Source of the DNA: a virus
Virus record (IMG/VR): IMGVR_UViG_3300033141_003979
Coordinates: 1-64,000 of that record
DNA length: 64,000 bases
Strand: one strand, 5' to 3'
The translations under genes and the position numbers were made by a program. Below, piece after piece: positions 508 to 16,174 of the stretch (position 1 is its first letter; each line of letters begins with the position of its first letter). The notes below the pieces were generated by a model that had not been told where the DNA came from, did no database searches, and saw nothing but the letters and a program-made list of their open reading frames with translations.

Positions 508-1253
508 ATGAGTAAATTCAAAAGGAAAGATGAAGTCCAATTATGTAAGTGCGGTTGTGGCGAAAGAACAAAGAAAAGCCAGAACTATAAAGGCTATAAT
601 AAATATATCAATGGGCATAACAGCATAGGCAAAAAAAGAGTTCTTACTAAAGAACATCGAAAACAAATATCAATTGCACAAAAGAAAAATTCTTTTTTCC
701 ATATTTATAATAAAACAAAAGAACATAGTAAAAAGGTTTCAGAAAGCAACAGAAAAAGGAAACTGTCAAAGGAAACAAAAAAAAGATTTCAGATTCTATA
801 AAATCATTAGGGGCAAATCACCCATTTAGAAGTGAAAAGTATAGAAAAAAACAATCTGAAAGAATGCTAAATGCAGGAGATTTACATCCTTCAAAAAATT
901 CTGAATTCCAAAAAATGCATTCAGAAAGAATGCTAAATGGTGGTGCTGCTCATGCCAATAGTTTTATAAAATCCCTTTCTAAACCCCAAGTTGAATTATT
1001 TGAACTTGTCAAACAAATTTATCCTAATACCATACTTAATCATCCATCATTAAATCGTTCTATTGACATAGCAATCCTTGATCAAATGATTGCCATTGAA
1101 TACGATGGAAGTCATTGGCATCAAAATAAAGAAGCAGATAAAAAGAGACAATTAGAATTAGAAACAATAGGCTGGAAATTTCTGAGATACTGTGATTATG
1201 TTCCATCAATGACTGAGCTGGAAAAGGATTTGAAATTATATGAACAAACTTAA
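508..1253 (+). pseudogene. NUMOD3/CxCGC-repeat endonuclease with DUF559/Vsr-like nuclease domain, split by a -1 frameshift at an A8 run
   Basis: ORF 508-801 (CKCGCG, NUMOD3-like motifs) joins ORF 864-1253 (DIAI..IAIEYDGSHWH) if one A is added at 777-784, reading KETKKKISDSIKS...SERMLN. Confidence 0.75.
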
Positions 1254-1995
1254 AACTGTAGCCATCATTCAAGCTCGCATGAATAGCACACGTCTTCCAG
1301 GCAAGGCCATATTACCATTAGCTAGAAACCCCGCCCTTCAGCAAATGATAGAACGAGTCCAAAAAGCCCAGGGAGTCGATCAGATCATAGTAGCAACCCC
1401 GTATGATGAAAGTAACAAGCCAATTTGGGATTTATGTAACGATATGAAAATTATACCCTGGACTGGCAGTGAGCACGATGTCCTTTATCGGGTACTTACA
1501 GCTGCTTGGGGCAATCGAGCAGACATCATTATTGACCTCACAGGAGATTGCCCGCTTATAGACCACCGGCATATTACTCGGTTAGTCAAAACTGTCAAAA
1601 ATGGCTTCAAGCCATGGAGACGAACTATTGATTATACCTCCAACATCAGTCCACGATCATGGCCAGATGGATTTGATGTACAGGTTTACAGAACAAAAGC
1701 GCTAGAAAAAGTCAGATTAGAATTCAATCCGCCACATCATGTTGGATGGAATATAGCTCAACTTCCAGAGGTTTTCAGGATTGCCAAAAATCTGACTGCC
1801 CCAGCCTTGATGCACTGGCCCGGCCTACGGCTAACCCTAGATACAAAAGAGGACTATGAAGTGCTCCAGAAAGTATTTGAATATTTTGGGGATAAGGATT
1901 TTACTGTAGAGGAGACCATTAGATTGATGGTAGGAAGACCGGAATGGCAAAAAATCAATAGAAAGGTCAGGACAAAGAGCCCGGAGGAGGGGTAA
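1240..1995 (+). CDS. SpsF/PseF-type sugar cytidylyltransferase (CMP-nonulosonate synthetase family)
   Basis: AIIQARMNSTRLPGK, GSEHDVL, TGDCPLID and RLTLDTKED motifs. Confidence 0.9.
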   Translation: MNKLKTVAIIQARMNSTRLPGKAILPLARNPALQQMIERVQKAQGVDQIIVATPYDESNKPIWDLCNDMKIIPWTGSEHDVLYRVLTAAWGNRADIIIDLTGDCPLIDHRHITRLVKTVKNGFKPWRRTIDYTSNISPRSWPDGFDVQVYRTKALEKVRLEFNPPHHVGWNIAQLPEVFRIAKNLTAPALMHWPGLRLTLDTKEDYEVLQKVFEYFGDKDFTVEETIRLMVGRPEWQKINRKVRTKSPEEG

Positions 1996-2168
1996 TGAAA
2001 AAACTATTAGTGGTGTTTATGGCAGTTTCAATTTTCGCAATAGTATCTTGCAATAGCGGTGGCGGAGGCAGCAGTAGCCCTCCTCCTGATCCTGAGCCAA
2101 TTACTGAAAAACCTTTTATCTGGGGGCAAAGCCATTGGGGTAATGCCGACTGGGAAGTAAAAAAGTAA
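1995..2168 (+). CDS. Small predicted lipoprotein (57 aa), not in the ORF track
   Basis: MKKLLVVFMAVSIFAIVS-C lipobox, Gly/Ser/Pro linker, C-terminal WGQSHWGNADW. TAATG overlap and GGAGG RBS. Confidence 0.65.
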   Translation: MKKLLVVFMAVSIFAIVSCNSGGGGSSSPPPDPEPITEKPFIWGQSHWGNADWEVKK

Positions 2169-2181
2169 AGGAGGAAAGATC

Positions 2182-2883
2182 ATGAAAAAGATCATCACAA
2201 TTTGCATTTTGTCAGTACTGTTTGCATTCAACACATCATTCGCCGAGGAAGGAGTCACAATTCCTTACAGTTTTGAAAATGGAACCATTGCAGATGCCAA
2301 TGAGGTCAATGCCGTTTTCAATGCTCTAGCCAAATCCATCAACCAAAATCTCATAGTCATGTATGATTATGGGGCACCAGAAAACACTACCAGGATATTT
2401 GCACACTCTGCCTCTCCAACAACCTTGACTTCTGTAGCTACTACCCCTGGGATGGAAACATGGGAATATTCTGATGGATCAAAAATAGAGCATTTAAAGA
2501 AAGATCATGTAGACGGCACTCTTGAAACTGGCCGCAGGATATACAACACTTCCGGAGTCCTTGTACAAGACTTAACATATTTTCCTGCAGTAATAGGAGT
2601 AGATTTAGCTGGATTGAAAGAGGCCGGCAAAATTTGGGGTAATGCCTATGTCGCCAAAAAGCCTGACAGTAGTATGTATGGAACGGAAATCAATATGTAT
2701 TCAATTATAGGCATTGAAGATGTAACGGTACCGGCAGGGACTTTTACCAATTGTACTAAGGTATTCCAAACTACTGGTAATTACAAAAACGTTGCTTGGT
2801 ATGCTGAAGGGGTGGGCATGGTCAAACGAATTGGGGTTGAAGGATTGATAGAATTACAAGAAGTTGAGTTAATTACTCCATAA
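2182..2883 (+). CDS. Secreted hypothetical protein
   Basis: Signal peptide ending SFA; EDVTVPAGTF..C motif in the C-terminal half; AGGAGG RBS. Confidence 0.7.
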   Translation: MKKIITICILSVLFAFNTSFAEEGVTIPYSFENGTIADANEVNAVFNALAKSINQNLIVMYDYGAPENTTRIFAHSASPTTLTSVATTPGMETWEYSDGSKIEHLKKDHVDGTLETGRRIYNTSGVLVQDLTYFPAVIGVDLAGLKEAGKIWGNAYVAKKPDSSMYGTEINMYSIIGIEDVTVPAGTFTNCTKVFQTTGNYKNVAWYAEGVGMVKRIGVEGLIELQEVELITP

Positions 2884-3062
2884 GACAAGAAATAGATTTC
2901 CAATGGCAAGACGTTCCCAACCAAAGCAATCTAAACAGCGATCAAAGACAAAGAAGCATCGCAGCCATGTCACAAAAAATCGTGGGAGCAATAAATGGTT
3001 AGAAGCCCGAATCGAGAGAGTGAAAAAATTATTCAAACCGAAGAAATGGGGGTGAAAATAGC

Positions 3063-4058
3063 ATGAGTAAAATCTATTCAGCAGCAGTAATCGGATGTGG
3101 ATCAATAGGGGCATTGAAACCTGGAGATATTGATTTACCTGGTGGAACGAACATACTAACTCACAGTCATGCACTGTGGAGGCACGAAAGAATAGATTTA
3201 GTTGCAGTGTGTGATATAGATCCAGAAAAGACAACCCAAGCAATGAATAAATGGGAATGCGATGCCAGAGCCAATATTAACAATCTATTTTATGCATTTA
3301 ATCCTGACATCGTAGTTATAGCAACCCCAACTGAAACTCATGCCAAAATCTTGATGGAAGTGATTGGCCACAGCCCAAAACTAATCATTGCAGAAAAGCC
3401 ATTTGGTTTAAATTTTGAACAGGCAGTAAAAATGGTCAATATATATTCAGAAATTCCAATTGCTATAGATTACATCCGCCGCTATGCCAATGGATATAAA
3501 GATATCAAAAAACAAATTGATACCGGTATATTTGGCAAAGCATTAAATTGTCGAGTACTTTATACGAGGGGACTTTTTCATGAGGGATGCCACGGCTTAG
3601 ACTTGATGCATTGGTTTTTTGGCAATATAATTGATCAATATGTTGAAGTTAGAGATATTGGTGTGGGAAAAGAACGATACATAGTAGATTTAAATGATGA
3701 CGATCCAACAGTATACGCAAATTTTGAATTCGTAGGTTGTCCAAATGTTGTATTCCACCCCTGCGATGGCCGTTGTTACGGGATCTTTGAAGTTGACATC
3801 TGCTTTGAAAAAGGCCGATTACGGTTTATTGATAACGGCCTCTATGTTGAGAAGTATCCAATCAATGAAGAAAATGAATGGGGTCACAAATCCCTTGGCT
3901 ATGGCTTGACAAGTGTCATCCGGACAGAAACCGGACTGAATACGGCCTTGTATAATCTGGTTGATAATGCTGTGAATTTCCTTGATGAAAAAGAGCCCTT
4001 GATCTGCACGGCTGAAGATGCTCTTGCAGTTCATAGGATATTAGAAGATATTACTTAA
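3063..4058 (+). CDS. Gfo/Idh/MocA family NAD(P)-dependent oxidoreductase
   Basis: VIGCGSIG Rossmann motif, IATPTETH, AEKP, GCHGLD. Confidence 0.9.
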   Translation: MSKIYSAAVIGCGSIGALKPGDIDLPGGTNILTHSHALWRHERIDLVAVCDIDPEKTTQAMNKWECDARANINNLFYAFNPDIVVIATPTETHAKILMEVIGHSPKLIIAEKPFGLNFEQAVKMVNIYSEIPIAIDYIRRYANGYKDIKKQIDTGIFGKALNCRVLYTRGLFHEGCHGLDLMHWFFGNIIDQYVEVRDIGVGKERYIVDLNDDDPTVYANFEFVGCPNVVFHPCDGRCYGIFEVDICFEKGRLRFIDNGLYVEKYPINEENEWGHKSLGYGLTSVIRTETGLNTALYNLVDNAVNFLDEKEPLICTAEDALAVHRILEDIT

Positions 4059-4123
4059 TCAGTTTTGAAACTTCAGGAATTTCTTATAATAAAACATAAT
4101 AAAGGAAATTCAAAGAGGGTAAA

Positions 4124-4353: not shown

Positions 4354-4356
4354 TAA

Positions 4357-5661
4357 ATGAGTAAACTAGCCCTATTCGGCGGCCCAAAAGTCAGAGAAGA
4401 TCTTTTCCCATCACAAAATACCTTTGATCATGAAGAGATGCAGGCCGTATGGCGAGTTATGAAAGAAGGTCGCCTATCAGGCTATCGGGGAAGTTGGTGT
4501 CCTGAATTTTTCGGGGGTCCTGAAATTCAGGCTCTCGAAACCGAATGGAAGAAGAAATTCAATGTCAAACATGCCATTGCTGTAAATAGTTGCACAAGTG
4601 GTCTTCATGTTGCCTGTGGAGCAATAGGATTAACTCCAGGAAGTGAAGTCATAGTTACCCCTTATTCAATGACATGTAGTTCTACAGCTCCTATGATATA
4701 CGGCGCTATACCTGTATTTGCTGATATCGACAATTATTGTGCTCTTGATCCAAAATCAATTGAAGAAAGAATAACCCCTAATACAAAAGCTATAATTGTT
4801 GTTAGTTTATTTGGAATGCCTTATAATCCAAAAATAAATAATATAGCAAAAAAACATGGGCTTCTAATAATCGAAGATGCTGCTCAAGCAATTGGGTCAG
4901 GCCTATCTTTGGGATATGATGAAGCAAATGGGGAACATTTCATCCATGCTGGAAATCTTGGTGATATCGGAGTATATTCCTTCAATTTCGGAAAGCATAT
5001 CAATGCCGGAGAAGGTGGAATAGTAGTTACTAACAATGATGATTTGGCTTTTAGAGTTAGGCTATTTGCTAATCATGGCGAGGCAGTAATCAGCGCTATG
5101 AATCCAGAAGAGTCAAGAAATATGATATCTGAAAATATAGTTGGATTTAATATGAGAATGACAGAGTTACAAGCTGCAATTATACGAGTACAATTAAAAA
5201 AGCTTGATGGATTTATTAAAACAAGAAGAGAAAATGTTAATACATTACATAATATATTAGAACAAATACCTGCTATAACTCTGTCCCCGATCAGAGACAA
5301 TTGCACTCATAGTTATTATGTAGATTCGTATTTATGGGATAGCAAACAAGCTAAAAATTTATACAGAGATAAATTTATTGAAGCCGTAAAAGCTGAATTA
5401 ACCCCGCGGGCAGGGAGAGAAGGGGAAGGAGTCCCAATTGGTTGTGGATATATATCTCCGTTATATCTCATGCCATTATTTCAACAACAAAATCCCTTGT
5501 CGCCAAATTATAAAAAAGGTTCATGCCCTAATTGTGAAGATTTATCTTTTAATAAATTATTTTTATCGCTTTTTCATGCACCCCGAAGTACAAAAGATGA
5601 TATGAAAGATGTTGGAAAGGCTTTTCAAAAGGTCTGGGAAAATAGGAAAGAATTAAAATAA
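4357..5661 (+). CDS. DegT/DnrJ/EryC1/StrS PLP-dependent sugar aminotransferase (PseC/LegC-like)
   Basis: AVNSCTSGLH, IIEDAAQAIG, YSFNFGKHINAGEGG (PLP lysine), GFNMRMTELQAA. Confidence 0.93.
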   Translation: MSKLALFGGPKVREDLFPSQNTFDHEEMQAVWRVMKEGRLSGYRGSWCPEFFGGPEIQALETEWKKKFNVKHAIAVNSCTSGLHVACGAIGLTPGSEVIVTPYSMTCSSTAPMIYGAIPVFADIDNYCALDPKSIEERITPNTKAIIVVSLFGMPYNPKINNIAKKHGLLIIEDAAQAIGSGLSLGYDEANGEHFIHAGNLGDIGVYSFNFGKHINAGEGGIVVTNNDDLAFRVRLFANHGEAVISAMNPEESRNMISENIVGFNMRMTELQAAIIRVQLKKLDGFIKTRRENVNTLHNILEQIPAITLSPIRDNCTHSYYVDSYLWDSKQAKNLYRDKFIEAVKAELTPRAGREGEGVPIGCGYISPLYLMPLFQQQNPLSPNYKKGSCPNCEDLSFNKLFLSLFHAPRSTKDDMKDVGKAFQKVWENRKELK

Positions 5662-5694: not shown

Positions 5695-5700
5695 TATGCT

Positions 5701-5800
5701 AGATAGCAAAACGATAAATTCAAATTTCAAGCCTGAGAATCCTCATATTGCGAAGTATGAGGGCGTTATCGTTAACGCTATCTGTTCTCAGGCTTTTTTA
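5701..5800 (+). ncRNA. C4-antisense-like three-stem structured RNA, copy 1
   Basis: Closing stem 5729-5739/5785-5795, GCGA (GNRA) hairpin 5741-5762, hairpin 5763-5778, then a U-run. The 5' leader 5701-5717 is complementary to 5766-5783. Covaries with copy 2. Confidence 0.75.
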
Positions 5801-5812
5801 TTTGGAGACGAC

Positions 5813-6421
5813 ATGGGTAAGTATAGAATAGGAAAAACTACTCAAATTACAATTTTTTGTTCACAATGTAATAAGCCTAAAAAAATATATCCCTTTTTAC
5901 AAAATCAAAAACATCACTTTTGTAATAAAAAATGTCATATAAAATGGCAAACCAAAAATATGAAAGGTAAATATAGTCCTGCTTGGAAAGGCGGAAATGT
6001 TATAGCTTTTTGTTCATGGTGCAATAAACCAAAAGAAATAAATCTCTATAAAAAATACAATCAAAAATACCATTTCTGTAGTCAAGAATGTAAAAAAATA
6101 TGGATGTCAGGTGAAAATGCCCCTAGTTGGCGCGGTGGGATATCTACTACTCCATATTGTTTTATATGGTCAGATTGGGAATATAAACAATCTATCAAAG
6201 ACAGAGATAATAATGAATGTCAAAACAAAGTTGATTGTCGCAAAAATTCTAATCACCTTCCTTTATGCCTTCATCATATAGATCACAATAAACAAGAATG
6301 TAATCCTTGGGATATTATAACTGTTTGTCATAGTTGCAATGGTAGAGCAAATTTCAACATAGAATACTGGAAAGAATTTTATCAAAATATAATGACTGAA
6401 AAATATGGATATAAATATTAA
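5813..6421 (+). CDS. Free-standing HNH endonuclease with zinc-finger repeats
   Basis: Probable start ATG 5813 behind GGAG. Two C..C/FC...C repeats, WKGG/WRGG motifs, LHHIDHNKQEC...CHSCNGRAN. Confidence 0.85.
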   Translation: MGKYRIGKTTQITIFCSQCNKPKKIYPFLQNQKHHFCNKKCHIKWQTKNMKGKYSPAWKGGNVIAFCSWCNKPKEINLYKKYNQKYHFCSQECKKIWMSGENAPSWRGGISTTPYCFIWSDWEYKQSIKDRDNNECQNKVDCRKNSNHLPLCLHHIDHNKQECNPWDIITVCHSCNGRANFNIEYWKEFYQNIMTEKYGYKY

Positions 6422-6433: not shown

Positions 6434-7300
6434 ATGACTATCAAATGGTGTGCTGAAATAGGAAGTAATCATAACCAAAATTTAGATAGAACAATTAAAT
6501 TGATAAAAGAGGCTAAAAAAATAGGCTGTGATTTTGTTAAGTTCCAACTTTTCAAGGGAGAGAATTTATATCACTCATCATTCGGTGCCAAGATCAATCA
6601 AATGCGAAAGTGGGAATTACCAAGCCATTTTCTTCCTGAGATAAGCCGGTGCTGCAAGGTCAATGACATCCGACTTGGCATCTCTGTTTTTGATCTTGAA
6701 GCCGTAGAAATTGCCAGCAAATATGCAGATTGCCTCAAGATCGGTAGTTATGAATTGCTTTGGCATGATTTAATCAAAACAGTTGTCAAAACAGGTAAGC
6801 CATGGATGATATCATCAGGTATGGCCGATTGGGGACAAATATCAAAGGCAATATCTCTTGTAAGACCTTGCAAGTTTGCTCAGGTGCCGATGGCAATCCT
6901 TCATTGCAACTCAAACTATCCAGCGCGCCCACAGAACTGCTGCCTTAATCAAATCTCTCTTTTGAATAAAATCTTTCCAGCAATGAAAATCGGCTGGTCA
7001 GATCACACAACTGAATCCGGAGTAATATATAAAGCCGTAGCTCTTGGGGCAAAATTTATTGAATTCCATTTTGACCTAGAAGATGGCCTTGGTTATGAAT
7101 CATCAATAGGCCATTGTTGGAAACCAGATAAGATCGGAGAAGTAATTCACAATGTAAGGATCGGAGAGATTGAAGAAGAAAGCACAGATACAGGCGAAAG
7201 CGAAGCGGCCAAGTGGAGGACAGACCCAACTGATGGGCTGAGACCATTGAAAAAATTTAGGGAAGAGTTGTTGAAAGATGAGGCAATGGAGGAGATATGA
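6434..7300 (+). CDS. NeuB/PseI family nonulosonic acid synthase; no C-terminal SAF domain seen
   Basis: AEIGSNH, VKFQ, KIGS, HCNSNYPA, GWSDHT, IEFHF. Confidence 0.92.
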   Translation: MTIKWCAEIGSNHNQNLDRTIKLIKEAKKIGCDFVKFQLFKGENLYHSSFGAKINQMRKWELPSHFLPEISRCCKVNDIRLGISVFDLEAVEIASKYADCLKIGSYELLWHDLIKTVVKTGKPWMISSGMADWGQISKAISLVRPCKFAQVPMAILHCNSNYPARPQNCCLNQISLLNKIFPAMKIGWSDHTTESGVIYKAVALGAKFIEFHFDLEDGLGYESSIGHCWKPDKIGEVIHNVRIGEIEEESTDTGESEAAKWRTDPTDGLRPLKKFREELLKDEAMEEI

Positions 7301-7731: not shown

Positions 7732-8859
7732 ATGAAACACTCGATAGTTTTCAAGCAGAAGGACATATATGCCAGTTTTCCCCTGCTAGGATATATAGAT
7801 GGCATTCTGACTATCGGCTTCTTCACTGCCCCGCAACCAGATCACATGGGCATCTTTGATTGGAATGTTAGGAGGTCACACGATGAAGGAGAGACATGGG
7901 AATATAGAAAATTTATGGATTTTCCTTATGACTGGCCAGCGGCATCGGCAAGAGAAAGATCAGACAGATTTACAACCACATTACCAGAGGGAACAGAAAT
8001 GATCACGGGCTCAACCGGATTCATCGGCAAAAAGAATATGGAGGACAAGTTTGAAAAAGTCCTCAGATGCAAAGGACTATTCCAGCGGACTTCAACTGAC
8101 AATTGGAAAACAGCAGTACAATGGATATGGGAAATCCCCAATGTTGACATTGTATTAACTTTTCCAAGACATCTACAAATCGATAATTTGATATTCATTC
8201 CCGCTTATGCAGTATTGGAAAATGGATTGAATAGAGCCTTTGTATGGAGATCTTCTAATGGAGGTAAAAACTGGCGACTTCACAATATGTTTCCTGATGA
8301 AATAAATGCAAATGAGATTGCCTTTGTCGAAACCGAAAGAGGCATTCTTGCCCACATCCGCAGCGATACCACCCCTTTCATTATGGAAAGTTGGTCATAC
8401 GATGGGATAACTTGGACGTATCCAACTTATATACATTATGACAAGTATTGCCTGAAAGTAGCTGGTGGGCCATCACATCTATTAAGACTACAGGATGGAA
8501 GAATATTAGATACCTATGGCTATCGTTTTAACAAGATGGGTATAAAAGCTGTCATATCAGAAGATGAGGGAGTTTCATGGATTAGTCCTACTACCCTGCG
8601 GAATGATGGCGGATATTCGAGTAGTCTGCACAAAAGAAGATGGAGAAACAAATTCAAATTGCCTCATGCCGGCAACGACGTCGGCTATCCCACATCAGTA
8701 CAATTAGGGAATGAATCAATCTTGACAGCTTACTACATTACCTGTGAAGACAGGATAACGCACATTGCTACAACAAACTGGGATATTGATGATGAAAATC
8801 AATTAGCGACTCCATCTGGCTCACCTAGCCCATCACCTGAATTTGAGGAGGAGAAATAA
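7732..8859 (+). CDS. Sialidase-like BNR/Asp-box beta-propeller protein
   Basis: Asp-boxes SHDEGETW, STDNWKT, SSNGGKNW, SYDGITW, SEDEGVSW; late GYP motif. Confidence 0.82.
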   Translation: MKHSIVFKQKDIYASFPLLGYIDGILTIGFFTAPQPDHMGIFDWNVRRSHDEGETWEYRKFMDFPYDWPAASARERSDRFTTTLPEGTEMITGSTGFIGKKNMEDKFEKVLRCKGLFQRTSTDNWKTAVQWIWEIPNVDIVLTFPRHLQIDNLIFIPAYAVLENGLNRAFVWRSSNGGKNWRLHNMFPDEINANEIAFVETERGILAHIRSDTTPFIMESWSYDGITWTYPTYIHYDKYCLKVAGGPSHLLRLQDGRILDTYGYRFNKMGIKAVISEDEGVSWISPTTLRNDGGYSSSLHKRRWRNKFKLPHAGNDVGYPTSVQLGNESILTAYYITCEDRITHIATTNWDIDDENQLATPSGSPSPSPEFEEEK

Positions 8860-9563: not shown

Positions 9564-10553
9564 ATGAACTTCGAGTCTAAACTATTCTGGCAAGGCCGAG
9601 AAGTATTGATTTCCGGTGGCACTGGCAGTCTTGGGAAGGCAATTACAAACTTGCTTATCCAAGAAGAATATCCAATCAAAGGATTGCGCATCTTCAGCCG
9701 TGACGAACTGAAGCAATATCAAATGAGGCAAAGCCTCAAAGCCCCATTCCCAGTGGCTTTCCTGATTGGAGATATCCGCAATCGTAAACGGTTGACCAGG
9801 GCTATGGAAGGGGTCGATACATGCATTCATGCCGCAGCATTAAAACAAGTAGACACATCTGAAAGCAATCCGTGGGAATTTATTGAAACCAACATTATAG
9901 GCACACAAAATGTTCTCGATGCCTGCCTGGATTGCAAGGTTGCCAGAGCAATGTTGATAAGCACTGACAAGGCCTCTTATCCCATTAATCTATACGGCAT
10001 GACCAAAGGATGTGCTGAACGGATCTTTGTGCATGGCAATATTTATTCCGGTGGTAGAATTCCAATATTTGGTGCTTGTAGATATGGGAATGTTCTCGGT
10101 TCACGAGGGTCTGTTATCCAAGTATTTCAGGAACAAGCCCTCAATGGGCAAATAATAACCATCACCGACAGTCAAATGACTAGATTCTGGATTACTATGA
10201 AAGATGTAGCCCGCTTCATTCTTCAATCAATCGAAATCATGCAAGCAGGAGAAATATATATCCCAAAAATGCCGAGCATGAAGATCGTAGATCTAGCAAA
10301 AACTATCATTGCAGAAACAGGCACAATGGGAAAATCGAAAATTGAAGAAATTGGTGTCAGACCAGGAGAGAAATTGCATGAGACATTGGTAACCAAAGAA
10401 GAAAGCTACAAATGTGATGTCCAGGATACCTATTATTTAATCCATCCAGTCAGAGAGTGCCCACCGGAGACGGTCAGGGCTTTATTCTCATATACAAGTG
10501 ATAACAATGATTGGTGGTTAACGAAGAAAGAGTTATGGGAAATGATAAAATGA
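9564..10553 (+). CDS. UDP-GlcNAc 4,6-dehydratase (PseB/FlaA1-like)
   Basis: ISGGTGSLG, FSRDELKQ, HAAALKQV, STDKA, PINLYGMTK, RYGNVLGSRGSV, MTRFW, RPGEKLHE. Confidence 0.93.
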   Translation: MNFESKLFWQGREVLISGGTGSLGKAITNLLIQEEYPIKGLRIFSRDELKQYQMRQSLKAPFPVAFLIGDIRNRKRLTRAMEGVDTCIHAAALKQVDTSESNPWEFIETNIIGTQNVLDACLDCKVARAMLISTDKASYPINLYGMTKGCAERIFVHGNIYSGGRIPIFGACRYGNVLGSRGSVIQVFQEQALNGQIITITDSQMTRFWITMKDVARFILQSIEIMQAGEIYIPKMPSMKIVDLAKTIIAETGTMGKSKIEEIGVRPGEKLHETLVTKEESYKCDVQDTYYLIHPVRECPPETVRALFSYTSDNNDWWLTKKELWEMIK

Positions 10554-11176
10554 CATCAGCAATGTATGAAACTAAACGGCTTATTCTTGAACCATTTAGC
10601 AGGAAACATCTTGAAGGGCCTTATCGTTCATGGTTCCATGATCCTGAAGTAACAAAATACAATTCCCATGGCCTCTTCCCATATACGATTGCCAAGATGG
10701 AAGCTTTTCTTGCATCAATTGAGGCAGGTAATATGATTGTAATGGCAGTAATGGCAAAATCAAAAAAATCAACTATAGAAATTCAAAATTCAAAAATTTC
10801 TTCTGATTGTGACCAAGGATTCAATTACATTTTTTCTGAAACAAACTTAATTCACATCGGCAACATCTCCCTTCAATCTATCAACTGGATTAACCGCAGT
10901 GCCGAGTACGCAGTAATTGTGGGAGATAAATCCTACTGGGGCAAAGGCTATGCCACAGAGGCAAGCCTGCTGTTGTTTGAGCACGGCTTTAAACGATTAA
11001 ATTTACATAAAATTTGGACTGGAACAGCAAAGACAAATATTGGAATGCAGCATGTAGCAAAAAAATTAGGAATGCAGTGGGAAGGAATGTTTCGAGAAGC
11101 AATGTTTTTAAACGGTCAATATGTAGATATTCTTACATATGGGATCTTAAAAAAAGAATTTAATCAAATTTCTTGA
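10550..11176 (+). CDS. GNAT N-acetyltransferase (PseH/RimJ-like)
   Basis: Probable start 10550 (ATGA overlap). HIGNISL..INWINRSAE, YWGKGYATEA, LNLHKI. Confidence 0.85.
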   Translation: MTSAMYETKRLILEPFSRKHLEGPYRSWFHDPEVTKYNSHGLFPYTIAKMEAFLASIEAGNMIVMAVMAKSKKSTIEIQNSKISSDCDQGFNYIFSETNLIHIGNISLQSINWINRSAEYAVIVGDKSYWGKGYATEASLLLFEHGFKRLNLHKIWTGTAKTNIGMQHVAKKLGMQWEGMFREAMFLNGQYVDILTYGILKKEFNQIS

Positions 11177-11201
11177 CTTTTCCAAAAAAAAATAATATAA
11201 T
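11173..11201 (+). promoter_or_regulatory. Sigma70-type promoter
   Basis: TTGACT (11173-11178), 17 bp spacer, TATAAT (11196-11201). Confidence 0.8.
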
Positions 11202-11207
11202 TATGAT

Positions 11208-11310
11208 GAATAGTATAGCAACGATCCAAAATTTAGAGCCTGAGAGTTTTCATGTCGTGAGGCATGGAAGCGTTGTTGCTAACGCTATTCACTCTCGGGC
11301 TTTTCTTTTT
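11208..11310 (+). ncRNA. C4-antisense-like three-stem structured RNA, copy 2
   Basis: Closing stem 11237-11247/11291-11301, GTGA (GNRA) hairpin 11248-11269, hairpin 11270-11285, then a U-run. Leader 11208-11225 is complementary to 11272-11290. Confidence 0.75.
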
Positions 11311-11322
11311 GGGGAGATTGGC

Positions 11323-12219
11323 ATGAGATTCAAAAGACGGAATCTACCACTATGTGAATGTGGATGTGGATATGAAGTTAAATGGTGTCAGACAAGAAAA
11401 CAATGGAATCCATTTATTAATGGACATCAAAATAGAGGCAAAAATAATTCACAATATAGCAAGACTGGCAAATTGAGTGCTGTTTATGGCAAAGACAAAT
11501 ATGCAGAAGAAAAAGCAAAATCTAAACCACTATGTAAATGTGGATGTAAAAATAAGACTAAATGGTGCAAATCAAGAAAGAAATTTAATGAATATATCAA
11601 TGGTCATTACATTTGTATTAATAATCCAATGAATAATCCAAAATCAGTAGCGAAATTAACTGGAAAAAATAGTTGTAATTATGGGAAAACAGGCAAAAAT
11701 CACCCTGCTTATGGATCTCAAAAATCTGAAGCAAAAAGAAAGAAAACATCAAAAACATTAATAGGAAATCAGAATAGCAAAGGGACTAGAAGGAATAAAG
11801 AATTTTGTGAAAACCAAAGAAAAATAATGTTAAATGGAGGGGCAAAACATGCCAATTCGTTTAAGACACCAGAAAGTTATAAAGCCCATACAGAATATAT
11901 GCTTAATGGTGGGGCTGCATATTTAAATTCACTTATTAAATCGCCCTCTAAACCACAAGTAGAATTGTTTGAACTAATCAAACAACTATTTCCAAATGCA
12001 ATTCTTAACCATCCATCATTGAATCGTTCTATTGACATAGCAATTCCTGACAAAATGATTGCAATTGAATATGATGGATCATACTGGCATCAAGATCAAA
12101 AAGCAGATGATAAAAGGCAGAAAGAATTAGAGTCACTTGGATGGAAGTTTCTGAGATACTGTGATTATGTCCCTACTATTGATGAATTAGAAAGGGATTT
12201 AAAAGGAGCAGAAAGATGA
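11323..12219 (+). CDS. Free-standing endonuclease with CxCGC repeats, NUMOD3-like motifs and a DUF559/Vsr-like domain
   Basis: Probable start ATG 11323 behind GGGGAG. CECGCG and CKCGC; C-terminus highly similar to 864-1253. Confidence 0.82.
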   Translation: MRFKRRNLPLCECGCGYEVKWCQTRKQWNPFINGHQNRGKNNSQYSKTGKLSAVYGKDKYAEEKAKSKPLCKCGCKNKTKWCKSRKKFNEYINGHYICINNPMNNPKSVAKLTGKNSCNYGKTGKNHPAYGSQKSEAKRKKTSKTLIGNQNSKGTRRNKEFCENQRKIMLNGGAKHANSFKTPESYKAHTEYMLNGGAAYLNSLIKSPSKPQVELFELIKQLFPNAILNHPSLNRSIDIAIPDKMIAIEYDGSYWHQDQKADDKRQKELESLGWKFLRYCDYVPTIDELERDLKGAER

Positions 12220-12449
12220 AAAAGAGCAAAGCAGAAAAATTCTCTCCTTCAGATATAAAACAAGCAACTGATATGACTATAATTAACAAGATCCAATTCA
12301 TTCGTACCAAAAACAACCAAGCTTGGATGGATATCCTGCGATGTGCTATGTCGAATGCCCCAGAAGAAACAAAGGTGATAATGGCCGCCATTGCAAAAAA
12401 CGATGCAGAAATTACAGAACTGACAAAGGAATTAGCAGATGCCTTGTGA
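12216..12449 (+). CDS. Hypothetical protein
   Basis: ATGA overlap, AGGAG RBS; conserved-looking IRTKNNQAWMDILR segment. Confidence 0.65.
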   Translation: MKKSKAEKFSPSDIKQATDMTIINKIQFIRTKNNQAWMDILRCAMSNAPEETKVIMAAIAKNDAEITELTKELADAL

Positions 12450-12636
12450 ACACAAAAATACGTACTATGAAGATTGGCCTAACGGCAGATGCATTGAAAT
12501 CTGCCTTGATTACAGTATGTCTCGTCATCACTGGGAACAGGGGCAATCTGAGTGGGTAATAGTTAAAGATATTGCAGGAGCAAAAGAGCGAGTGCAGGAG
12601 TCTATCAATGAAATGAGAGACGTAGTATGTTTTTAG
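12439..12636 (+). CDS. Hypothetical protein
   Basis: Overlapping small ORF in operon orientation. Confidence 0.5.
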   Translation: MPCEHKNTYYEDWPNGRCIEICLDYSMSRHHWEQGQSEWVIVKDIAGAKERVQESINEMRDVVCF

Positions 12637-12643
12637 AAAGATA

Positions 12644-12814
12644 ATGGCCAAACTAGTCAAAGGGTATAAGTGCCCAAAGTGTGGAGGGCAGATTCGAGAA
12701 GATGAAAAAATGCAGAATAGGTATTTTTGTACCAATGCCGGAGATGCGTATGGTAAAGGTGTATGTATATTTGAAACTTATCGTAGAAGCGATTTAGTGA
12801 AGGAGGAGGAATGA
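12644..12814 (+). CDS. Small zinc-ribbon protein (56 aa), not in the ORF track
   Basis: MAKLVKGYKCPKCGG...YFC...VCIF. Confidence 0.5.
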   Translation: MAKLVKGYKCPKCGGQIREDEKMQNRYFCTNAGDAYGKGVCIFETYRRSDLVKEEE

Positions 12815-12888
12815 AACTTAAACCTGTTTATAAGATTTACATCTCTATAAATATGTTCATGAATTAGCAGAGTTATTGAGAGGAAAAA

Positions 12889-14271
12889 ATGAAAAAGAAG
12901 AACAAAACGCTGGCTAAAAATCTCAATGCATTCAAAAAAATCAATCCCCCCATGCATGGTTGGCTGATGGAACAGAAAGGGGTTAATTGGATCGATGAGA
13001 TTCGCAGCAAAAATGGGGACAAGAATTTCCTCATCCAAGAAGGCAGCAAAATCCAGCCAGCCTACAATATGAACAACCCAACAAAGCAAGCCAACAAAGG
13101 CACCAAGAACATGAGGTTGCACAAGGAAAACATTTCAATAATTGTTGGCTTTGGCCTTGGTTATCTTGCTAAAGCTATCTTAGACAAGATGGAAAAAGGA
13201 CACCATGTCCTTGTAATTGAGCCAGTAGGAGATGTAATAAAATTAGCCCTCGGCAATATTGATTTTTCCAAGGCAATCTCTAATGGAGACTTATTGATAA
13301 TTGCCCCAGGCAAACAGGAAGTTATTTTTGCTCTCCATTTTATGAGCAATCAATTCGTGATCTCAGACTGGTTCATGACGATAGACAAATATACAAACCT
13401 CAAGCCAGATGTCTACAAAGAGTTAACCGGACTTACTGCCGATATCATTAACCAGGTCATGTGCAATACAGGCACAATAGCTGGTGCCGCAGGCGGCAAG
13501 ATCGCTGACAATGACATTGCCTGCCTGCCCTATGTCATAAGGCACAGGGGTGTTGCAGAATTGAAGGACCTATACAAAGACAAACCTGCTATTCTTGTAA
13601 GTACAGGCCCATCATTGGCCAAAAACATCCACCATCTAATCGACTTAGAGGACAAGACAGTGATCATTGCAGTCGGTCAAGCATTGAGACCTCTGCTTGC
13701 CTATGGAATCCGTCCGGACTTCATCTGCACCGTAGATTTTGGAGAAGTCAATTACTGCCATTTCAAAGGGCTCATGGACAGCAACATTCCCTTAGTAACA
13801 ATCAATAGGGCTTATGCCCCATTGCTCAAGGCTTGGCAGGGACCAAAATTCATCGCAGCAACACCAGTGCCCGGCTTTGAGCACATGGCCACTGGCATAT
13901 TATCAGATAAAGGATTCCTTGAGGCCGGAGGCAGTGTGGCACATTTGGTATTCGGGTTGGCTCAACGACTTGGCTGCAATCCAATAGTCTTCGTGGGCCA
14001 GGATCTTGCTCTCGGAGAGACTTCTCATATCCCTCTGGCCGATGCCGCAGGAGAGGTGAAGATTGATGAAAGCGGGCAAATCCATTGGGAAGTGAAGGAT
14101 CACAGATGTCATCTTCATAAGAAAGATCAAACTTATTTAATGGGGCCTATTGCACAAGTACCAGGCTATTTCGGGAAGCCAGTTATGACGAATATGGGAT
14201 TAGCCAGCTTCTTATCGGTATTTGAGGCAATGGTTGAAGGGCATTTGAGGAGGAATGATGAAACGAATTAA
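12889..14271 (+). CDS. Maf (motility-associated factor, DUF115) protein glycosyltransferase, N-terminal part
   Basis: VGFGLGY, AILVSTGPSLAKNI, GIRPDFICTVD, GGSVAH, LGCNPIVFVGQDLA. Ends before the INATEGG motif. Confidence 0.88.
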   Translation: MKKKNKTLAKNLNAFKKINPPMHGWLMEQKGVNWIDEIRSKNGDKNFLIQEGSKIQPAYNMNNPTKQANKGTKNMRLHKENISIIVGFGLGYLAKAILDKMEKGHHVLVIEPVGDVIKLALGNIDFSKAISNGDLLIIAPGKQEVIFALHFMSNQFVISDWFMTIDKYTNLKPDVYKELTGLTADIINQVMCNTGTIAGAAGGKIADNDIACLPYVIRHRGVAELKDLYKDKPAILVSTGPSLAKNIHHLIDLEDKTVIIAVGQALRPLLAYGIRPDFICTVDFGEVNYCHFKGLMDSNIPLVTINRAYAPLLKAWQGPKFIAATPVPGFEHMATGILSDKGFLEAGGSVAHLVFGLAQRLGCNPIVFVGQDLALGETSHIPLADAAGEVKIDESGQIHWEVKDHRCHLHKKDQTYLMGPIAQVPGYFGKPVMTNMGLASFLSVFEAMVEGHLRRNDETN

Positions 14272-14620
14272 CTGTATCTATTATTTATATGAAAAATGTC
14301 TTCATCCAAAACAAAAGAAAAGACTTTGGTTTTTCCATCCAACATGTTATGTACCTTGCTGCACTCTTCAGAAGCCGTATGCAAAACCACCTAGATGCCC
14401 TCCCCCACCACCTCCCGCCCCGAAAATCCCAATGTGTAAGATAGTAACTCATCTAATTTTGCCCAATGAACCCTACCAAATCTTCGTCTGCCCTAAATGT
14501 GATGGAGAAAAAGAAGATAAAGACGCCGTCCCAAGTCCGATGGCAGACGGAGGAAATTACTATGGGCCTTGCCGCCTATGTGATGGGAAGGGATATATAA
14601 AGGAGAAGGTGGAGAAATGA
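14258..14620 (+). CDS. Cys/Pro-rich zinc-binding hypothetical protein inserted in maf
   Basis: CPKCDG...CRLCDGKG (DnaJ-type zinc motif), poly-Pro tract, GAGGAGG RBS. Confidence 0.6.
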   Translation: MKRINCIYYLYEKCLHPKQKKRLWFFHPTCYVPCCTLQKPYAKPPRCPPPPPPAPKIPMCKIVTHLILPNEPYQIFVCPKCDGEKEDKDAVPSPMADGGNYYGPCRLCDGKGYIKEKVEK

Positions 14621-14700
14621 AATCTAGCTTAATAGGTCTTGTTATTAGTATGCTTATGGGATTAGCAATTATTGTATTTAGCTGGTTAAAGGGAGAATAA
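14617..14700 (+). CDS. 27-aa hydrophobic peptide
   Basis: MKSSLIGLVISMLMGLAIIVFSWLKGE; ATGA overlap, GGAG RBS. Confidence 0.4.
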   Translation: MKSSLIGLVISMLMGLAIIVFSWLKGE

Positions 14701-14701
14701 T

Positions 14702-16174
14702 ATGCAGCGAGTAATTATTAACGCAACGGAAGGTGGGGCTCATATCAAAGGCACAGACCGGATGCCTCTCAAGAAAGTAATTAACAAATACTGCCAAAAA
14801 CCCATCAACAAATCGAAGGTCAAAAAGCTTCTCTCTTTGGCCAAAAATGGAGACGAACTGATTACCAAAGTTATCCCTCTGCTTGAAGATGATATCAAAG
14901 TACTAGATGAAATCTCTACCAGCAGCCGCAGAGGCCTTGCCGCTTGCCGAGGGCTCAAAACCTTAATGAGTAGATCCAATTACAGAGGTCTGCTTTCCAG
15001 AAAGAAGGAAAAGCAACTTGATTGGATGCTCAATAAAGCCAGGCAAAAGGGAGGGAAGGACTTCATAAAAACAAACCAGATATTCTATGCAAAGGCAATT
15101 GCTTCGGTCAAAAAATCTAAGCTCAAGAATGTGTTCATCTTATCTAATAAGAACTTCAAACACTCGGCTACTGCCCAGTTAGCAGCAACCAAAAACCCAC
15201 TAGTTAACGTGGCAATCTACGGTGCCAGCCGAGAGATCCAGGGTCGGCGGTTGAAAGTAAAAGAGACATTAGCACATTTCCTACGAAACAACAAAGATGC
15301 ATTGACCCGCGTAGAGCGGAATGAGCTAATTCTCAAGACGGCAAGGCGAGCATCAGAATCATTGAGGAAATCATACAAAGAAACATTAGAGTTGTTGAAG
15401 AAATATGACGGGACAAAAGACAGTAGTCTGCTGGTATCAAACGAAGTTGAGCCAATAAATCTCGACGACTCAGAAGAGTATTTTGCCGCAGGCAATTGGG
15501 CACATCCGTTGTTAGATGCAAGTAAAATTATTAAAAAAGATCCAACTGATAGAAAGGCTAATGAAATTTTAGCAAAAACATTATCAATGAGGGCACAAGC
15601 TAAAAATAAAGCCCGAAATAATGAAGTCAAAAATGCAGACAGAGAAACCCGATTGCTCCAATACAACAAACTACTCAAAGAGAGTAAGGAAATAGGCCGG
15701 AAAGAAAACAAGTTTGACGAGGCACTAACGATGCTGAAGAAGGCAGCCAAATTGATGCCGGAAGAGGAAGAGGCCCGCTGGGGAGTTGCTACTGCCTTGC
15801 ATCATGCTGGGAAGATTAAAGAGTCCTTGAAAGAATATGAAAAGTTAATCAAGGATTTTCAAGACAATTATATGTACCTCCTTGAATACGGGCAGGTGCT
15901 CCTGCGCAATAAGAAAACTCAGGAAGGCCTCAAAATAATCGGTGAGGTAATGGCAAAGACCGATGAATTTGATTACTTCCTAGCTCGACTAGGCGAGATA
16001 TATGAGCACTCTGATATGATGGAAGAAGCCTTGACAGCATACAATTCATATCTAGAAAAATTCCCATTCAACTATCAGATTTGGGTCCGAAAAGGAAATT
16101 GTCTAACTGCACTAGGTAGAAACACAATGGCAGATTGGGCATTCCGAAAGGCAAGAGAAATCAGACCGGATTAA
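14702..16174 (+). CDS. Maf C-terminal part (INATEGG motif and helical region) fused to TPR repeats
   Basis: Starts MQRVIINATEGGAHIKG, the conserved distal Maf motif. C-terminal TPR-like repeats. Confidence 0.82.
   Translation: MQRVIINATEGGAHIKGTDRMPLKKVINKYCQKPINKSKVKKLLSLAKNGDELITKVIPLLEDDIKVLDEISTSSRRGLAACRGLKTLMSRSNYRGLLSRKKEKQLDWMLNKARQKGGKDFIKTNQIFYAKAIASVKKSKLKNVFILSNKNFKHSATAQLAATKNPLVNVAIYGASREIQGRRLKVKETLAHFLRNNKDALTRVERNELILKTARRASESLRKSYKETLELLKKYDGTKDSSLLVSNEVEPINLDDSEEYFAAGNWAHPLLDASKIIKKDPTDRKANEILAKTLSMRAQAKNKARNNEVKNADRETRLLQYNKLLKESKEIGRKENKFDEALTMLKKAAKLMPEEEEARWGVATALHHAGKIKESLKEYEKLIKDFQDNYMYLLEYGQVLLRNKKTQEGLKIIGEVMAKTDEFDYFLARLGEIYEHSDMMEEALTAYNSYLEKFPFNYQIWVRKGNCLTALGRNTMADWAFRKAREIRPD

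Follow-up and report, generated by a model that had tools for sequence, protein, structure and literature searches.

Why should a virus carry a set of nonulosonic acid enzymes together with a Maf-type glycosyltransferase, which sugar would they make, and on which protein would it be placed? The locus that raises these questions lies in the window, a stretch of 64,000 nucleotides (positions 1 to 64,000 of IMG/VR record IMGVR_UViG_3300033141_003979). The record is the complete 109,770-bp genome of an uncultured myovirus, with terminal repeats, an estimated completeness of 100%, and structural genes for tail sheath, baseplate hub, tape measure, major head protein, and portal. We found no papers in the literature that describe a phage NulO-Maf module. 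Our preferred reading, to which we assign a probability of roughly 0.55, is that the locus is a conserved phage module that produces a CMP-nonulosonate of the pseudaminic acid kind during infection, for Maf-type transfer to Ser/Thr of a virion protein. The bases for reading it as a module are intact genes, synteny in about 38 contigs, presence in a second phage lineage, and a Maf half with the fold of a solved Maf.

RESULTS

The module is phage resident and old

The module spans positions 1240 to 16174 on the + strand, with homing-endonuclease genes and small ORFs interspersed. The features at and within it are as follows.

864..1253, + strand: free-standing DUF559/MTES_1575-type endonuclease gene, outside the pathway (Pfam)
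1240..1995, + strand: cytidylyltransferase (CTase; CTP_transf_3), predicted CMP-nonulosonate synthetase, 251 aa (Pfam, 76.9 bits)
3063..4058, + strand: Gfo/Idh/MocA NAD(P) oxidoreductase (Gfo), 331 aa (Pfam, 52.7 bits)
4357..5661, + strand: DegT-family PLP aminotransferase, 434 aa, sole copy in the genome (Pfam, 257.8 bits)
5696..6421, + strand: Cys-rich, endonuclease-like mobile ORF, outside the pathway (sequence)
6434..7300, + strand: short NeuB-family nonulosonate synthase, 288 aa (Pfam, 163.4 bits)
7732..8859, + strand: sialidase-fold BNR_2 six-bladed propeller, accessory, 375 aa (Pfam)
9564..10553, + strand: PseB-like UDP-GlcNAc 4,6-dehydratase (Polysacc_synt_2), 329 aa (Pfam, 310 bits)
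10511..11176, + strand: GNAT N-acetyltransferase (Acetyltransf_3) (Pfam, 90.7 bits)
11173..12219, + strand: homing-endonuclease gene with a DUF559-type C terminus, outside the pathway (PHROG, Pfam)
12216..12449, + strand: conserved 77-aa protein directly upstream of Maf (homologues in relatives)
12889..14271, + strand: Maf catalytic half, MAF_flag10/MptE-like, 460 aa (PF01973, 147.9 bits)
14255..14701, + strand: insert splitting Maf (sequence)
14702..16174, + strand: Maf C-terminal half, 490 aa (TPR Pfam matches, alignment to the L007 Maf)

ORF calls and Pfam and NCBIfam matches place all seven gene types named by the original prediction where it had put them, on the + strand, and its view that they reside in a phage rather than in a host chromosome holds as well, given the complete genome and the synteny of the block with related phage contigs. 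Between this phage and its relatives, module proteins share 40-66% identity, in line with the values for the sheath protein (61-69%) and for the major head protein (57-61%). About 38 IMG/VR contigs share the order SbcC-CTase-Gfo-DegT-NeuB-(BNR2)-PseB-GNAT-77aa-Maf-fibre-baseplate, and a relative of the Maf is encoded in 104 IMG/VR stretches. A second, unrelated phage lineage also has the module, there adjoining TerS, TerL, and portal genes. The module is thus an old phage-resident feature. An attachment site, which had been offered as a sign of host DNA, is not applicable here because the genome is complete and terminally repeated.

Could the block nevertheless be an insert from a host, recently acquired or in decay, or host DNA joined on by mis-assembly, with no function for the phage? 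Its interruption by mobile endonuclease genes and small unconserved ORFs would suit such an origin, as would the split in the Maf gene. But every enzyme ORF is intact, the G+C content (0.35-0.42) matches that of the remaining genome, the nearest bacterial homologues of the module proteins are only 25-54% identical, and five phages have Maf split at exactly the same site and conserve both halves. Together with the conserved gene order, these observations make a host insert highly improbable; conservation effectively refutes it.

The interleaved endonuclease genes are real, with DUF559/MTES_1575-type domains at 864-1253 and 11173-12219. The DNA of the former shares 78% identity with 11887-12204 and 74% with genome positions 98566-98801; the latter matches a PHROG homing endonuclease (E 1.8e-10). 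Neither gene was found in relatives, and the ORF at 5696-6421 has no homologue in relatives and no firm family match. The 77-aa protein has homologues at the same position in L006-L010 (37-50% identity) and keeps that position across the clade, with no Pfam match. The BNR_2 gene had been missed earlier; it is conserved, but only in the closest subclade. Its AF2 model (pLDDT 92) has 5hx0, a protein of unknown function, as the best Foldseek match, followed by sialidases, with the Pseudomonas aeruginosa pseudaminidase 2w38 at rank 4.

The enzymes depart from the canonical families

No module enzyme reaches its NCBIfam equivalog cut-off, and only PseB comes near (TIGR03589, 361.9 bits over model positions 3-323 of 324, cut-off 407.75; FnlA, 214); its STDK and YxxxK motifs are visible. 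The CTase has a KdsB-type model as its best NCBIfam match, with only 21 bits for PseF, and 6oew (97 bits) as its best PDB match. In Gfo, the GxGxxG and EKP motifs can be seen. DegT scores 185 against the PseC model (cut-off 423.5), and its best PDB match is KdnA (5k8b, 154 bits), with Helicobacter pylori PseC at 81. The 288-aa NeuB has no SAF domain, falls far under the cut-offs of both NeuB_NnaB (149 bits) and PseI (134 bits), has SpsE (1vli) as its best PDB match, and sits apart from the PseI and NeuB/LegI clades, in a long-branch clade of its own. GNAT scores only 29 against PseH (cut-off 93). Alignments of its relatives begin at residue 14-18, and its true start probably lies ~10 to 14 codons inside the listed ORF.

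Four of these enzymes (DegT, GNAT, CTase, and Gfo) have their orthologues in a bacterial cassette of four genes that lies directly after pseI in loci G035, G127, and G191, which also have PseB, PseC, a PseF-like protein, PseG, and PseH. PseG scores above cut-off beside the cassette in these three, and the bacterial relatives of Gfo sit directly downstream of pseI. Phage DegT is 37-40% identical to cassette DegT (E 1e-87 to 1e-99) and 27-30% identical to PseC of the same loci; for GNAT the values are 39-42% against the cassette version and 25% against PseH. The CTase is 33-38% identical to the second CTase, that of the cassette. In our tree, phage DegTs are nested within the cassette clade, which is split from PseC at 97% SH-aLRT. 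The phage enzymes are therefore not the plain PseC, PseH, PseI, and PseF that had been assumed, since NeuB lies outside PseI and DegT, GNAT, and CTase match the cassette. In all bacterial loci that could be interpreted (G035, G127, G191, G443, and G162), the cassette adjoins an aminotransferase of the PseC type that is distinct from its own DegT. Its four genes therefore look like an add-on there, and, judged from these relationships, the phage enzymes may be insufficient on their own.

The absence of PseG noted originally extends to the whole genome: a search of all 109,770 bases yielded neither PseG (TIGR03590, PF04101) nor NeuC/LegG (PF02350). We surveyed composition in 34 Maf-bearing viral records, of which 8 are complete (at least 90%). 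None of the 34 has a PseG-type PF04101 match or a NeuC-type PF02350 match above cut-off. DegT is present in all 34, in exactly one copy each, NeuB and PseB-like proteins are each present in 33, and Gfo (PF01408) is present in 32 (31 of the 33 others plus the window). Gfo is thus a constant member rather than the "extra" enzyme it had been called, and its bacterial orthologues coexist with PseG. L173 and L194 have DegT and PseB and lack Gfo, so DegT is tied to PseB and not to Gfo. Two Maf-bearing records, both incomplete, lack Gfo as well as PseG and are therefore evidence against Gfo as a universal UDP-removing enzyme. To call this composition a "Pse pathway minus PseG" would oversimplify it, and a variant sugar, as had been suggested, is likely.

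A split Maf transferase

The AF2 model of the Maf catalytic half (pLDDT 87) has the Maf glycosyltransferase 5mu5 as its best Foldseek match (E 1.5e-17; next match, 4.6e-5). The product of 14702-16174, previously called a TPR protein, is the C-terminal half of the same gene: it starts with a conserved VINATEGG strand, ends with TPR repeats (about residues 330-490), and aligns with the intact Maf of L007 (970 aa) over residues 457-954 of the latter. Maf is fused in 31 relatives; in four others, as in this phage, it is divided immediately ahead of the VINATEGG strand. The insert here holds two ORFs, one Cys-rich with 121 aa (14255-14620) and one hydrophobic with 27 codons (14618-14701). Each has a ribosome-binding site of its own, and relatives have no homologue of the insert. 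The phage Maf clade has its own TPR domain, and its identity to the bacterial Mafs found does not exceed 30%.

DISCUSSION

If the module is a pathway, PseB would convert UDP-GlcNAc to a 4-keto-6-deoxy sugar, the single DegT would aminate it, and GNAT would acetylate the product. UDP would then have to be removed, for which Gfo, the BNR_2 propeller (in this subclade), and a host PseG are candidates; Gfo could do so through NAD-dependent oxidation and elimination. The divergent short NeuB would condense the sugar with PEP, and the CTase would activate it. Alternatively or additionally, Gfo may tailor the finished sugar, by analogy with ElaA at C8. The absence of BNR_2 from most of the clade counts against a role for it in UDP removal. 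The TPR half of Maf would most likely pick the acceptor, as does the TPR of Shewanella Maf-1, and we take that acceptor to be a virion protein because the genome has no flagellin gene and the module lies beside tail-fibre and baseplate genes. The Ser-rich phage proteins proposed earlier as targets are not a general answer, because relatives G002, G004, and G005 keep the module and lack the 23-kb Ser-repeat/GT27 block, which encodes the Ser-repeat fibres.

A possible, though less probable, alternative is host-dependent tailoring, in which the host makes Pse and supplies PseC, PseH, and PseG, phage PseB and NeuB boost the first and condensing steps, and CTase-Gfo-DegT-GNAT further modify finished Pse by activation, ElaA-like hydroxyl oxidation, transamination, and N-acetylation, to give, for example, a tri-amino nonulosonic acid that Maf transfers. 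The relationships of DegT and GNAT to the cassette and the position of the cassette after pseI favor it, as does the best-matching solved structure for DegT, that of KdnA, an enzyme whose substrate for amination is a free ulosonic acid. A CTase-Gfo precedent exists in ElaB and ElaA, the latter oxidizing C8 of CMP-Leg (PMC13656337), and phage-borne tailoring of Pse has already been shown for prophage EpaA and EpaB (PMC12053666). Yet PseB and a single DegT are kept throughout the viral records, none of which has PseC, PseG, or NeuC. That the host should have to supply exactly three intermediate steps in both lineages is unparsimonious. In L173-type phages, which lack Gfo, the only keto substrate for DegT would be the product of PseB. 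We also know of no natural tri-amino nonulosonic acid, which weighs against such a product.

Whichever sugar is made, Maf might act on host flagellin, pilin, or another surface protein instead of the virion, masking the receptor and so blocking superinfection or loss of progeny on debris, or otherwise reprogramming the surface. The sole Maf acceptor reported from experiments is flagellin (bioRxiv 10.1101/2023.12.03.569772; PMC9298399). Furthermore, the module closes the + strand replication/early block and converges on the late genes, which fits expression before virion assembly, and EpaAB act on host capsule (PMC12053666). We nevertheless consider a host acceptor unlikely, given the divergence of the phage Maf clade with its own TPR domain and the constant position of the module, which always adjoins fibre and baseplate genes in the first lineage and packaging and head genes in the second. 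By our reasoning, flagellin made in the lytic cycle would extend filament tips only.

The canonical route to CMP-pseudaminic acid in Campylobacter and Helicobacter is PseB-PseC-PseH-PseG-PseI-PseF (PMC5109656). The phage families (SDR 4,6-dehydratase, DegT, GNAT, NeuB family, and CTP_transf_3) cover five of these six steps, but PseG is missing from all records, PseB alone scores near its equivalog, NeuB is short, SAF-less, and outside the PseI clade, DegT is outside the PseC clade, and Gfo is an almost constant additional member. In Acinetobacter baumannii KL49, legionaminic acid is 8-epimerized by ElaB-ElaA-ElaC (PMC13656337), and prophage EpaA-EpaB convert Pse to 8-epi-Pse (PMC12053666). Compared by description rather than by ElaA/ElaB sequence, the Ela system resembles the module in that a CTase gene adjoins Gfo/Idh/MocA in a nonulosonic acid locus; the module lacks an SDR reductase partner and has an aminotransferase and GNAT after Gfo instead. 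With EpaAB it shares Pse-modifying genes carried by a phage, but those belong to temperate prophages and come without synthase, dehydratase, or Maf. Mycobacteriophage virions are reportedly glycosylated by phage-encoded glycosyltransferases, in work attributed to Freeman et al. (2023, Cell Host Microbe). The concept of phage enzymes glycosylating their own structural proteins is common to both, although virion glycosylation is here proposed from gene content, and the mycobacteriophage system uses other sugars and transferase families, with no nonulosonic acid and no Maf. The closest build is that of Maf-1, the "bipartite" flagellin pseudaminyltransferase of Shewanella oneidensis MR-1, in which MAF_flag10 is joined to an acceptor-binding TPR at the C terminus (bioRxiv 10.1101/2023.12.03.569772). 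The intact Mafs of phage relatives, about 850-970 aa long, are built in this way, but they share little identity with bacterial Mafs, and the phage genome has no flagellin gene. Unlike Maf-1, the Maf of this phage and four relatives consists of two polypeptides, a putative arrangement with a separate acceptor-binding subunit that recalls the three-part Maf-2/GlfM system.

Results

The phage genome and its gene layout

The virus record is 109,770 bp long, carries terminal repeats and has an estimated completeness of 100%; the window is its first 64 kb. PHROG matches to tail sheath, baseplate hub, tape measure, tail fibre, major head protein and portal/head-morphogenesis genes lie on the minus strand, starting at 16.5 kb, and identify the phage as a myovirus. 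The nonulosonic-acid (NulO) and Maf module at 1240-16174 is the end of a long plus-strand replication arm, which starts at 74 kb and runs on past the genome end, and it converges with the late operon at 16174/16175. Each enzyme named in the original prediction was recovered with Pfam and NCBIfam, and two further genes had been overlooked.

Genes of the NulO-Maf module and inserted endonuclease-type genes
1240-1995, +, cytidylyltransferase (CTase); Pfam, NCBIfam
3063-4058, +, Gfo/Idh/MocA (Gfo); Pfam, NCBIfam
4357-5661, +, DegT; Pfam, NCBIfam
6434-7300, +, NeuB; Pfam, NCBIfam
7732-8859, +, BNR_2 sialidase-fold protein; overlooked originally
9564-10553, +, PseB-like dehydratase; Pfam, NCBIfam
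10511-11176, +, GNAT; Pfam, NCBIfam
12889-14271, +, Maf, catalytic half; Pfam, NCBIfam
14702-16174, +, Maf, second half; overlooked originally
864-1253, 5696-6421 and 11173-12219, +, three endonuclease-type genes; no counterpart in related phages

The predicted interleaving with endonucleases and small ORFs was borne out: the three endonuclease-type genes and several small ORFs are absent from related phages and are mobile or accessory inserts. A DUF559/MTES_1575-type endonuclease domain occurs in three copies with 74-78% DNA identity (window 864-1253 and 11887-12204; genome 98566-98801), two of which form direct repeats bracketing most of the sugar genes. Two ORFs with lipoprotein-like signal peptides (1995-2168 and 2182-2883) separate the CTase gene from the Gfo gene and are absent from relatives; the latter ORF has a weak DUF3108-like match. 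The window holds no tRNAs, and promoter and terminator scans gave counts not above shuffled expectation.

Spread of the module among phages

The same genes in the same order were found in five IMG/VR contigs retrieved with the Maf half, and a broader Maf alignment yielded 104 viral stretches, from which 78 distinct loci were kept. One clade of about 38 contigs (Maf identity 39-67%) has the order SbcC-like ATPase, CTase, Gfo, DegT, NeuB, BNR_2 (in some members), PseB, GNAT, a 77-aa protein and Maf, followed by tail fibre and baseplate genes on the opposite strand. Compared with three longer relatives, the window's module proteins show 40-66% identity, a range shared by the sheath, head and baseplate proteins, so the module has diverged together with its phage. 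The conserved order and the matching identities agree with the earlier proposal that the genes are phage-resident. In one relative (L007, 13327-14253), Maf is separated from the tail-fibre gene by an ORF resembling an IS110-family transposase, and in another (L010) the site at which Maf is split holds a 4-kb insert with genes of unknown kind; the Maf/tail-fibre region is an insertion hot spot.

A second lineage (L181, L183, L187, L193 and L173) carries CTase, Gfo, DegT, GNAT, a formyltransferase, a very short NeuB-like gene (about 200-256 aa), PseB and a Maf of 590-640 aa, and its module directly adjoins genes for the small and large terminase, portal and prohead protease. Extra genes in two of these loci (L183, 685-9566; L173, 7749-16639) encode a B12-binding radical SAM enzyme, a formyltransferase and a PseA-like N-acetyl-sugar amidotransferase.

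Among 50,697 GenBank phage records, there was no DNA match to the phage and no Maf match, and NeuB matches occurred in three records only. A profile search of genome contigs with the phage-only Maf alignment gave no match, and a literature search found no paper on a phage Maf. Prophage Pse-tailoring genes, EpaA/EpaB, are known (PMC12053666); pseI is mentioned in passing as a viral auxiliary gene, and phages go unmentioned in a large phylogeny of NulO synthases.

A pathway census was taken over 34 Maf-bearing viral records including the window, 8 of them at least 90% complete.

Pathway genes in Maf-bearing viral records
DegT: 34/34 records, one gene each
NeuB family: 33/34 records
PseB-like: 33/34 records; TIGR03589 199-397 bits, none over the 407.75 cut-off
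Gfo/Idh/MocA: 31/33 records, plus the window
PseG type (PF04101): 0/34 records
NeuC/LegG type (PF02350), over cut-off: 0/34 records

The absence of PseG, the UDP-sugar hydrolase, had been predicted from the window; TIGR03590/PF04101 searches, in which the controls matched, found none anywhere in the genome, the first five relatives or the 33 further Maf-bearing records. Given the zero counts for both PF04101 and PF02350, the lack of a nucleotide-sugar hydrolase is a constant feature of the phage modules and not an accident of one genome.

Enzyme identities

The PseB-like dehydratase is the sole near-equivalog among the module enzymes: it matches TIGR03589 over its full length with 361.9 bits (cut-off 407.75; FnlA 214.5) and has the STDK and YxxxK motifs, and LegB reaches 62.7 bits, below its cut-off of 475. 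DegT scores 185 bits against the PseC model TIGR03588 (cut-off 423.5), and its best solved relative is the Kdo-8-aminotransferase KdnA (154 bits; H. pylori PseC, 81). GNAT falls below the PseH cut-off (TIGR03585, 29.3 bits against 93.1), and the CTase scores 21 bits against PseF (TIGR03584, cut-off 205.7) and meets the wider CTP_transf_3 family with 76.9 bits. NeuB, at 288 aa and without a SAF domain, is below cut-off for both PseI (TIGR03586, 133.7 bits against 340) and NeuB/LegI (TIGR03569, 149 against 399.65). A NeuC/LegG-type hydrolysing 2-epimerase (PF02350) is absent from the genome. Describing the set as a near-complete Pse pathway lacking PseG was fair as a first account, but it understates how non-canonical the enzymes are.

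The NeuB phylogeny proposed earlier was run with four phage NeuBs, 14 PseI proteins over the equivalog cut-off, six TIGR03569-labelled NeuB/LegI proteins and 11 short proteobacterial NeuBs, all references being from Pseudomonadota. The phage proteins group together as a separate clade, whose branch is 2.4 changes per site long, and fall outside all three reference groups, and so the tree does not assign the sugar to a Pse, Leg or Neu type within these references.

A related cassette in bacteria

Searching phage Gfo and DegT against 201, then 401 Pseudomonadota genomes showed that CTase, Gfo, DegT and GNAT form a conserved cassette in bacteria. In three genomes (G035, G127 and G191), this cassette immediately follows a bona fide pseI, and these loci (L296, L294 and L295, respectively; cassette at about 10.5-14.4 kb in each) also hold PseB, PseC, a PseF-like CTase, PseG over cut-off and PseH. 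In G443 and G162, other genes of the NeuB family stand with the cassette, as does a separate aminotransferase resembling PseC. These two genomes, together with G164 and G261, have looser versions of the cassette. Phage DegT is 37-40% identical to cassette DegT, versus 27-30% to the canonical copy of the same loci, and phage GNAT is 39-42% identical to cassette GNAT, versus 25% to PseH (G035). In a DegT tree, both phage lineages form one clade nested inside the cassette group and apart from the PseC proteins of five bacterial Pse loci (97% SH-aLRT). The bacterial cassette that follows pseI probably specifies a modified nonulosonic acid, and it represents uncharacterised nonulosonic-acid chemistry in its own right.

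Structure and splitting of Maf

The catalytic half of Maf (460 aa) matches PF01973 (MptE-like; MAF_flag10/DUF115) at residues 214-376 with 147.9 bits (cut-off 34.6), and phage and bacterial Mafs share G240-P-S-L, N246 and Q371-D372 without exception. Against the Maf N-terminal domain family PF20157 it scores 22.8 bits (cut-off 23.5); many close homologues have a precomputed match to this family. The AF2 model (pLDDT 87) retrieves Magnetospirillum Maf (5mu5) at Foldseek rank 1 with E 1.5e-17 over 495 aligned columns; rank 2 has E 4.6e-5. By domain and fold, this half is predicted to be a Maf-type transferase of CMP-nonulosonate to Ser/Thr.

Where Maf is intact, relatives encode it as one polypeptide of about 850-970 aa; the two ORFs of the window align to its residues 1-450 and 457-954, with the break between a variable linker and a conserved VINATEGG strand. 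The gene is split exactly here in five phages, and the inserts measure -19 (overlapping ORFs), 92, about 430, 704 and 4,040 bases; the other 31 complete Maf genes are fused. About 50 clusters of 450-480 aa in a metagenome protein set show that the split form is common. In the window, the insert (14255-14701) encodes a 121-aa Cys-rich ORF and a 27-codon hydrophobic ORF, each with a strong ribosome-binding site and neither with a homologue in the fetched relatives; the 121-aa protein has a poly-Pro stretch and CxxC...CxxC zinc-ribbon-like motifs. Catalogued RNAs, including group I introns, gave no Rfam match with E up to 1 at the split or anywhere in 1-17000, and an intron at the split was rejected on this result together with the RBS-led ORFs.

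The BNR_2 sialidase-fold protein

The BNR_2 protein is modelled as a six-bladed propeller (pLDDT 92). Foldseek returned at least 500 matches, with an uncharacterised Dyadobacter propeller (5hx0) at rank 1 and, after it, mostly sialidases among the matches listed, including the P. aeruginosa pseudaminidase. At the position of the RIP motif of GH33 exo-sialidases, whose catalytic set comprises an Arg triad, an acid/base Asp and a Tyr-Glu nucleophile pair, the sequence reads Y-A-S-F-P-L-L (family consensus YxxFPxL), so that the usual Arg appears to be missing; E195, R210, R265 and Y334 are invariant. In bacteria, homologues with 36-38% identity (Caldilineaceae, Dehalococcoidia, Poribacteria and Latescibacterota) lie in transporter-linked, catabolic-looking loci, with Chloroflexota copies often adjoining DegT, and the examined genomes with such homologues have no NeuB-family gene at E 1e-10. 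In two Caldilineaceae and Dehalococcoidia MAG loci (L012, 4200-18800, and L037), the homologue stands beside DegT, an ABC importer and an FGE-sulfatase-type gene, with two or three further BNR_2 paralogues; such a locus looks like one for uptake and breakdown of an amino-sugar glycan. Among phages, the gene is confined to the window's closest subclade. This distribution and these bacterial contexts rule against BNR_2 as a general PseG substitute; it is an accessory and not the general missing enzyme. Its C-terminus (window 8800-8859) is a disordered Ser-Pro tail (…TPSGSPSPSPEFEEEK; pLDDT under 50) that resembles the Ser-Pro repeats of fibre proteins and could be a glycosylation tag; most homologues are shorter.

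Discussion

The observation of a NulO-Maf module in a phage is solid. To our knowledge, Maf enzymes and pseudaminic/legionaminic acids have hardly been met outside bacterial flagella and surface polysaccharides. What the phage enzymes do together can be read in two ways. The four cassette-type proteins may be an add-on that activates, oxidises, transaminates and acetylates a finished nonulosonic acid, a role suggested by the contexts of the bacterial cassette and parallel to that of ElaB and ElaA, the latter a Gfo/Idh/MocA enzyme that oxidises C8 of CMP-legionaminic acid (PMC13656337). The phage would then depend on the PseC, PseH and PseG of its host. Alternatively, in phages these proteins would do the jobs of PseC, PseH, PseG and PseF, with Gfo releasing UDP via NAD-dependent oxidation and elimination. 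Such chemistry is used by Gfo-fold GH109 glycosidases, and NeuC uses a glycal logic. This second possibility, or at least action of DegT on the PseB product, is favoured by the retention of PseB and a single DegT in 33-34 of the 34 records and by L173-type phages, which keep both without Gfo and have the PseA-like N-acetyl-sugar amidotransferase instead (8wex, E 4e-34).

Gfo as a proven PseG substitute is weakened by its bacterial orthologues, which coexist with PseG over cut-off, and as a universal UDP remover by two Gfo-less viral records (both incomplete) that also lack PseG. Weighing the retention of PseB and DegT against these Gfo-less, PseG-less records, we lean somewhat towards a variant pathway that is largely self-contained, over host-dependent tailoring. 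The consistent lack of both PseG and NeuC suggests that a nonulosonic-acid pathway can be completed in a way not yet recognised. Our fullest proposal is that tailed phages of at least two lineages have a self-sufficient, PseG-independent route to a new Pse-like sugar, in which Gfo would release UDP by NAD-dependent oxidation/elimination or add an amino group, and that a TPR-guided Maf, here in two subunits, would coat the phage's own virion proteins with it; we give this tentative scheme as a whole about one chance in four.

The acceptor had been sought among the phage's Ser-rich proteins or in host flagellin and pili. A 23-kb block (window 31193-54019) with a GT27-like gene encodes the Ser-repeat proteins at 37.6-47.4 kb. 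In three relatives (G002, G004 and G005; G002 is the record of L007), the block and the GT27-like gene are absent and homologues of the neck genes at 30747-31193 and 54024-54689 are adjacent; among the relatives examined, the block is an insertion specific to the window's phage. Since these relatives keep the module without the block, the module predates the block and is independent of it, and Ser-repeat fibres do not hold as the general target for the clade, though in this phage they could be extra acceptors. Just past its portal gene, G002 has a 705-codon ORF (46945-49062, minus strand) with 83% serine, which may encode a genuine poly-Ser protein or be an artefact of repeats. Our most economical guess is that the acceptor is a virion protein, because the module lies beside fibre and baseplate genes in the first lineage and beside packaging and head genes in the second, and because the TPR is phage-specific. 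Host flagellin or pili are another possible target. As for pointers to the host, the window has no tRNAs, and the tail sheath is distantly Mu-like (its identity to Mu-like phages of Proteobacteria does not exceed 41%).

If the phage does coat itself, its virion proteins would be the first Maf substrate other than flagellin, and its particle the first among phages to bear a sialic-acid-like coat. Decorated particles would bear on stability, adsorption, mucus and immune interactions and phage therapy; alternatively, host surface proteins would be rewritten during infection. The compact phage gene sets are also convenient for reconstitution and for production of rare CMP-sugars.

From its genes, the module is predicted to be a phage-specific variant of the Maf/nonulosonic-acid glycosylation system. 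The phage Maf is not encoded beside flagellin: the complete genome has no Flagellin_N match, and the Maf gene neighbours tail-fibre and baseplate genes. In build, the phage Maf resembles Maf-1 of S. oneidensis, as both combine MAF_flag10 with a C-terminal TPR. The TPR of Maf-1 binds the acceptor and is indispensable (bioRxiv 10.1101/2023.12.03.569772), and by analogy the split phage form may separate the catalytic and acceptor-binding functions into two subunits.
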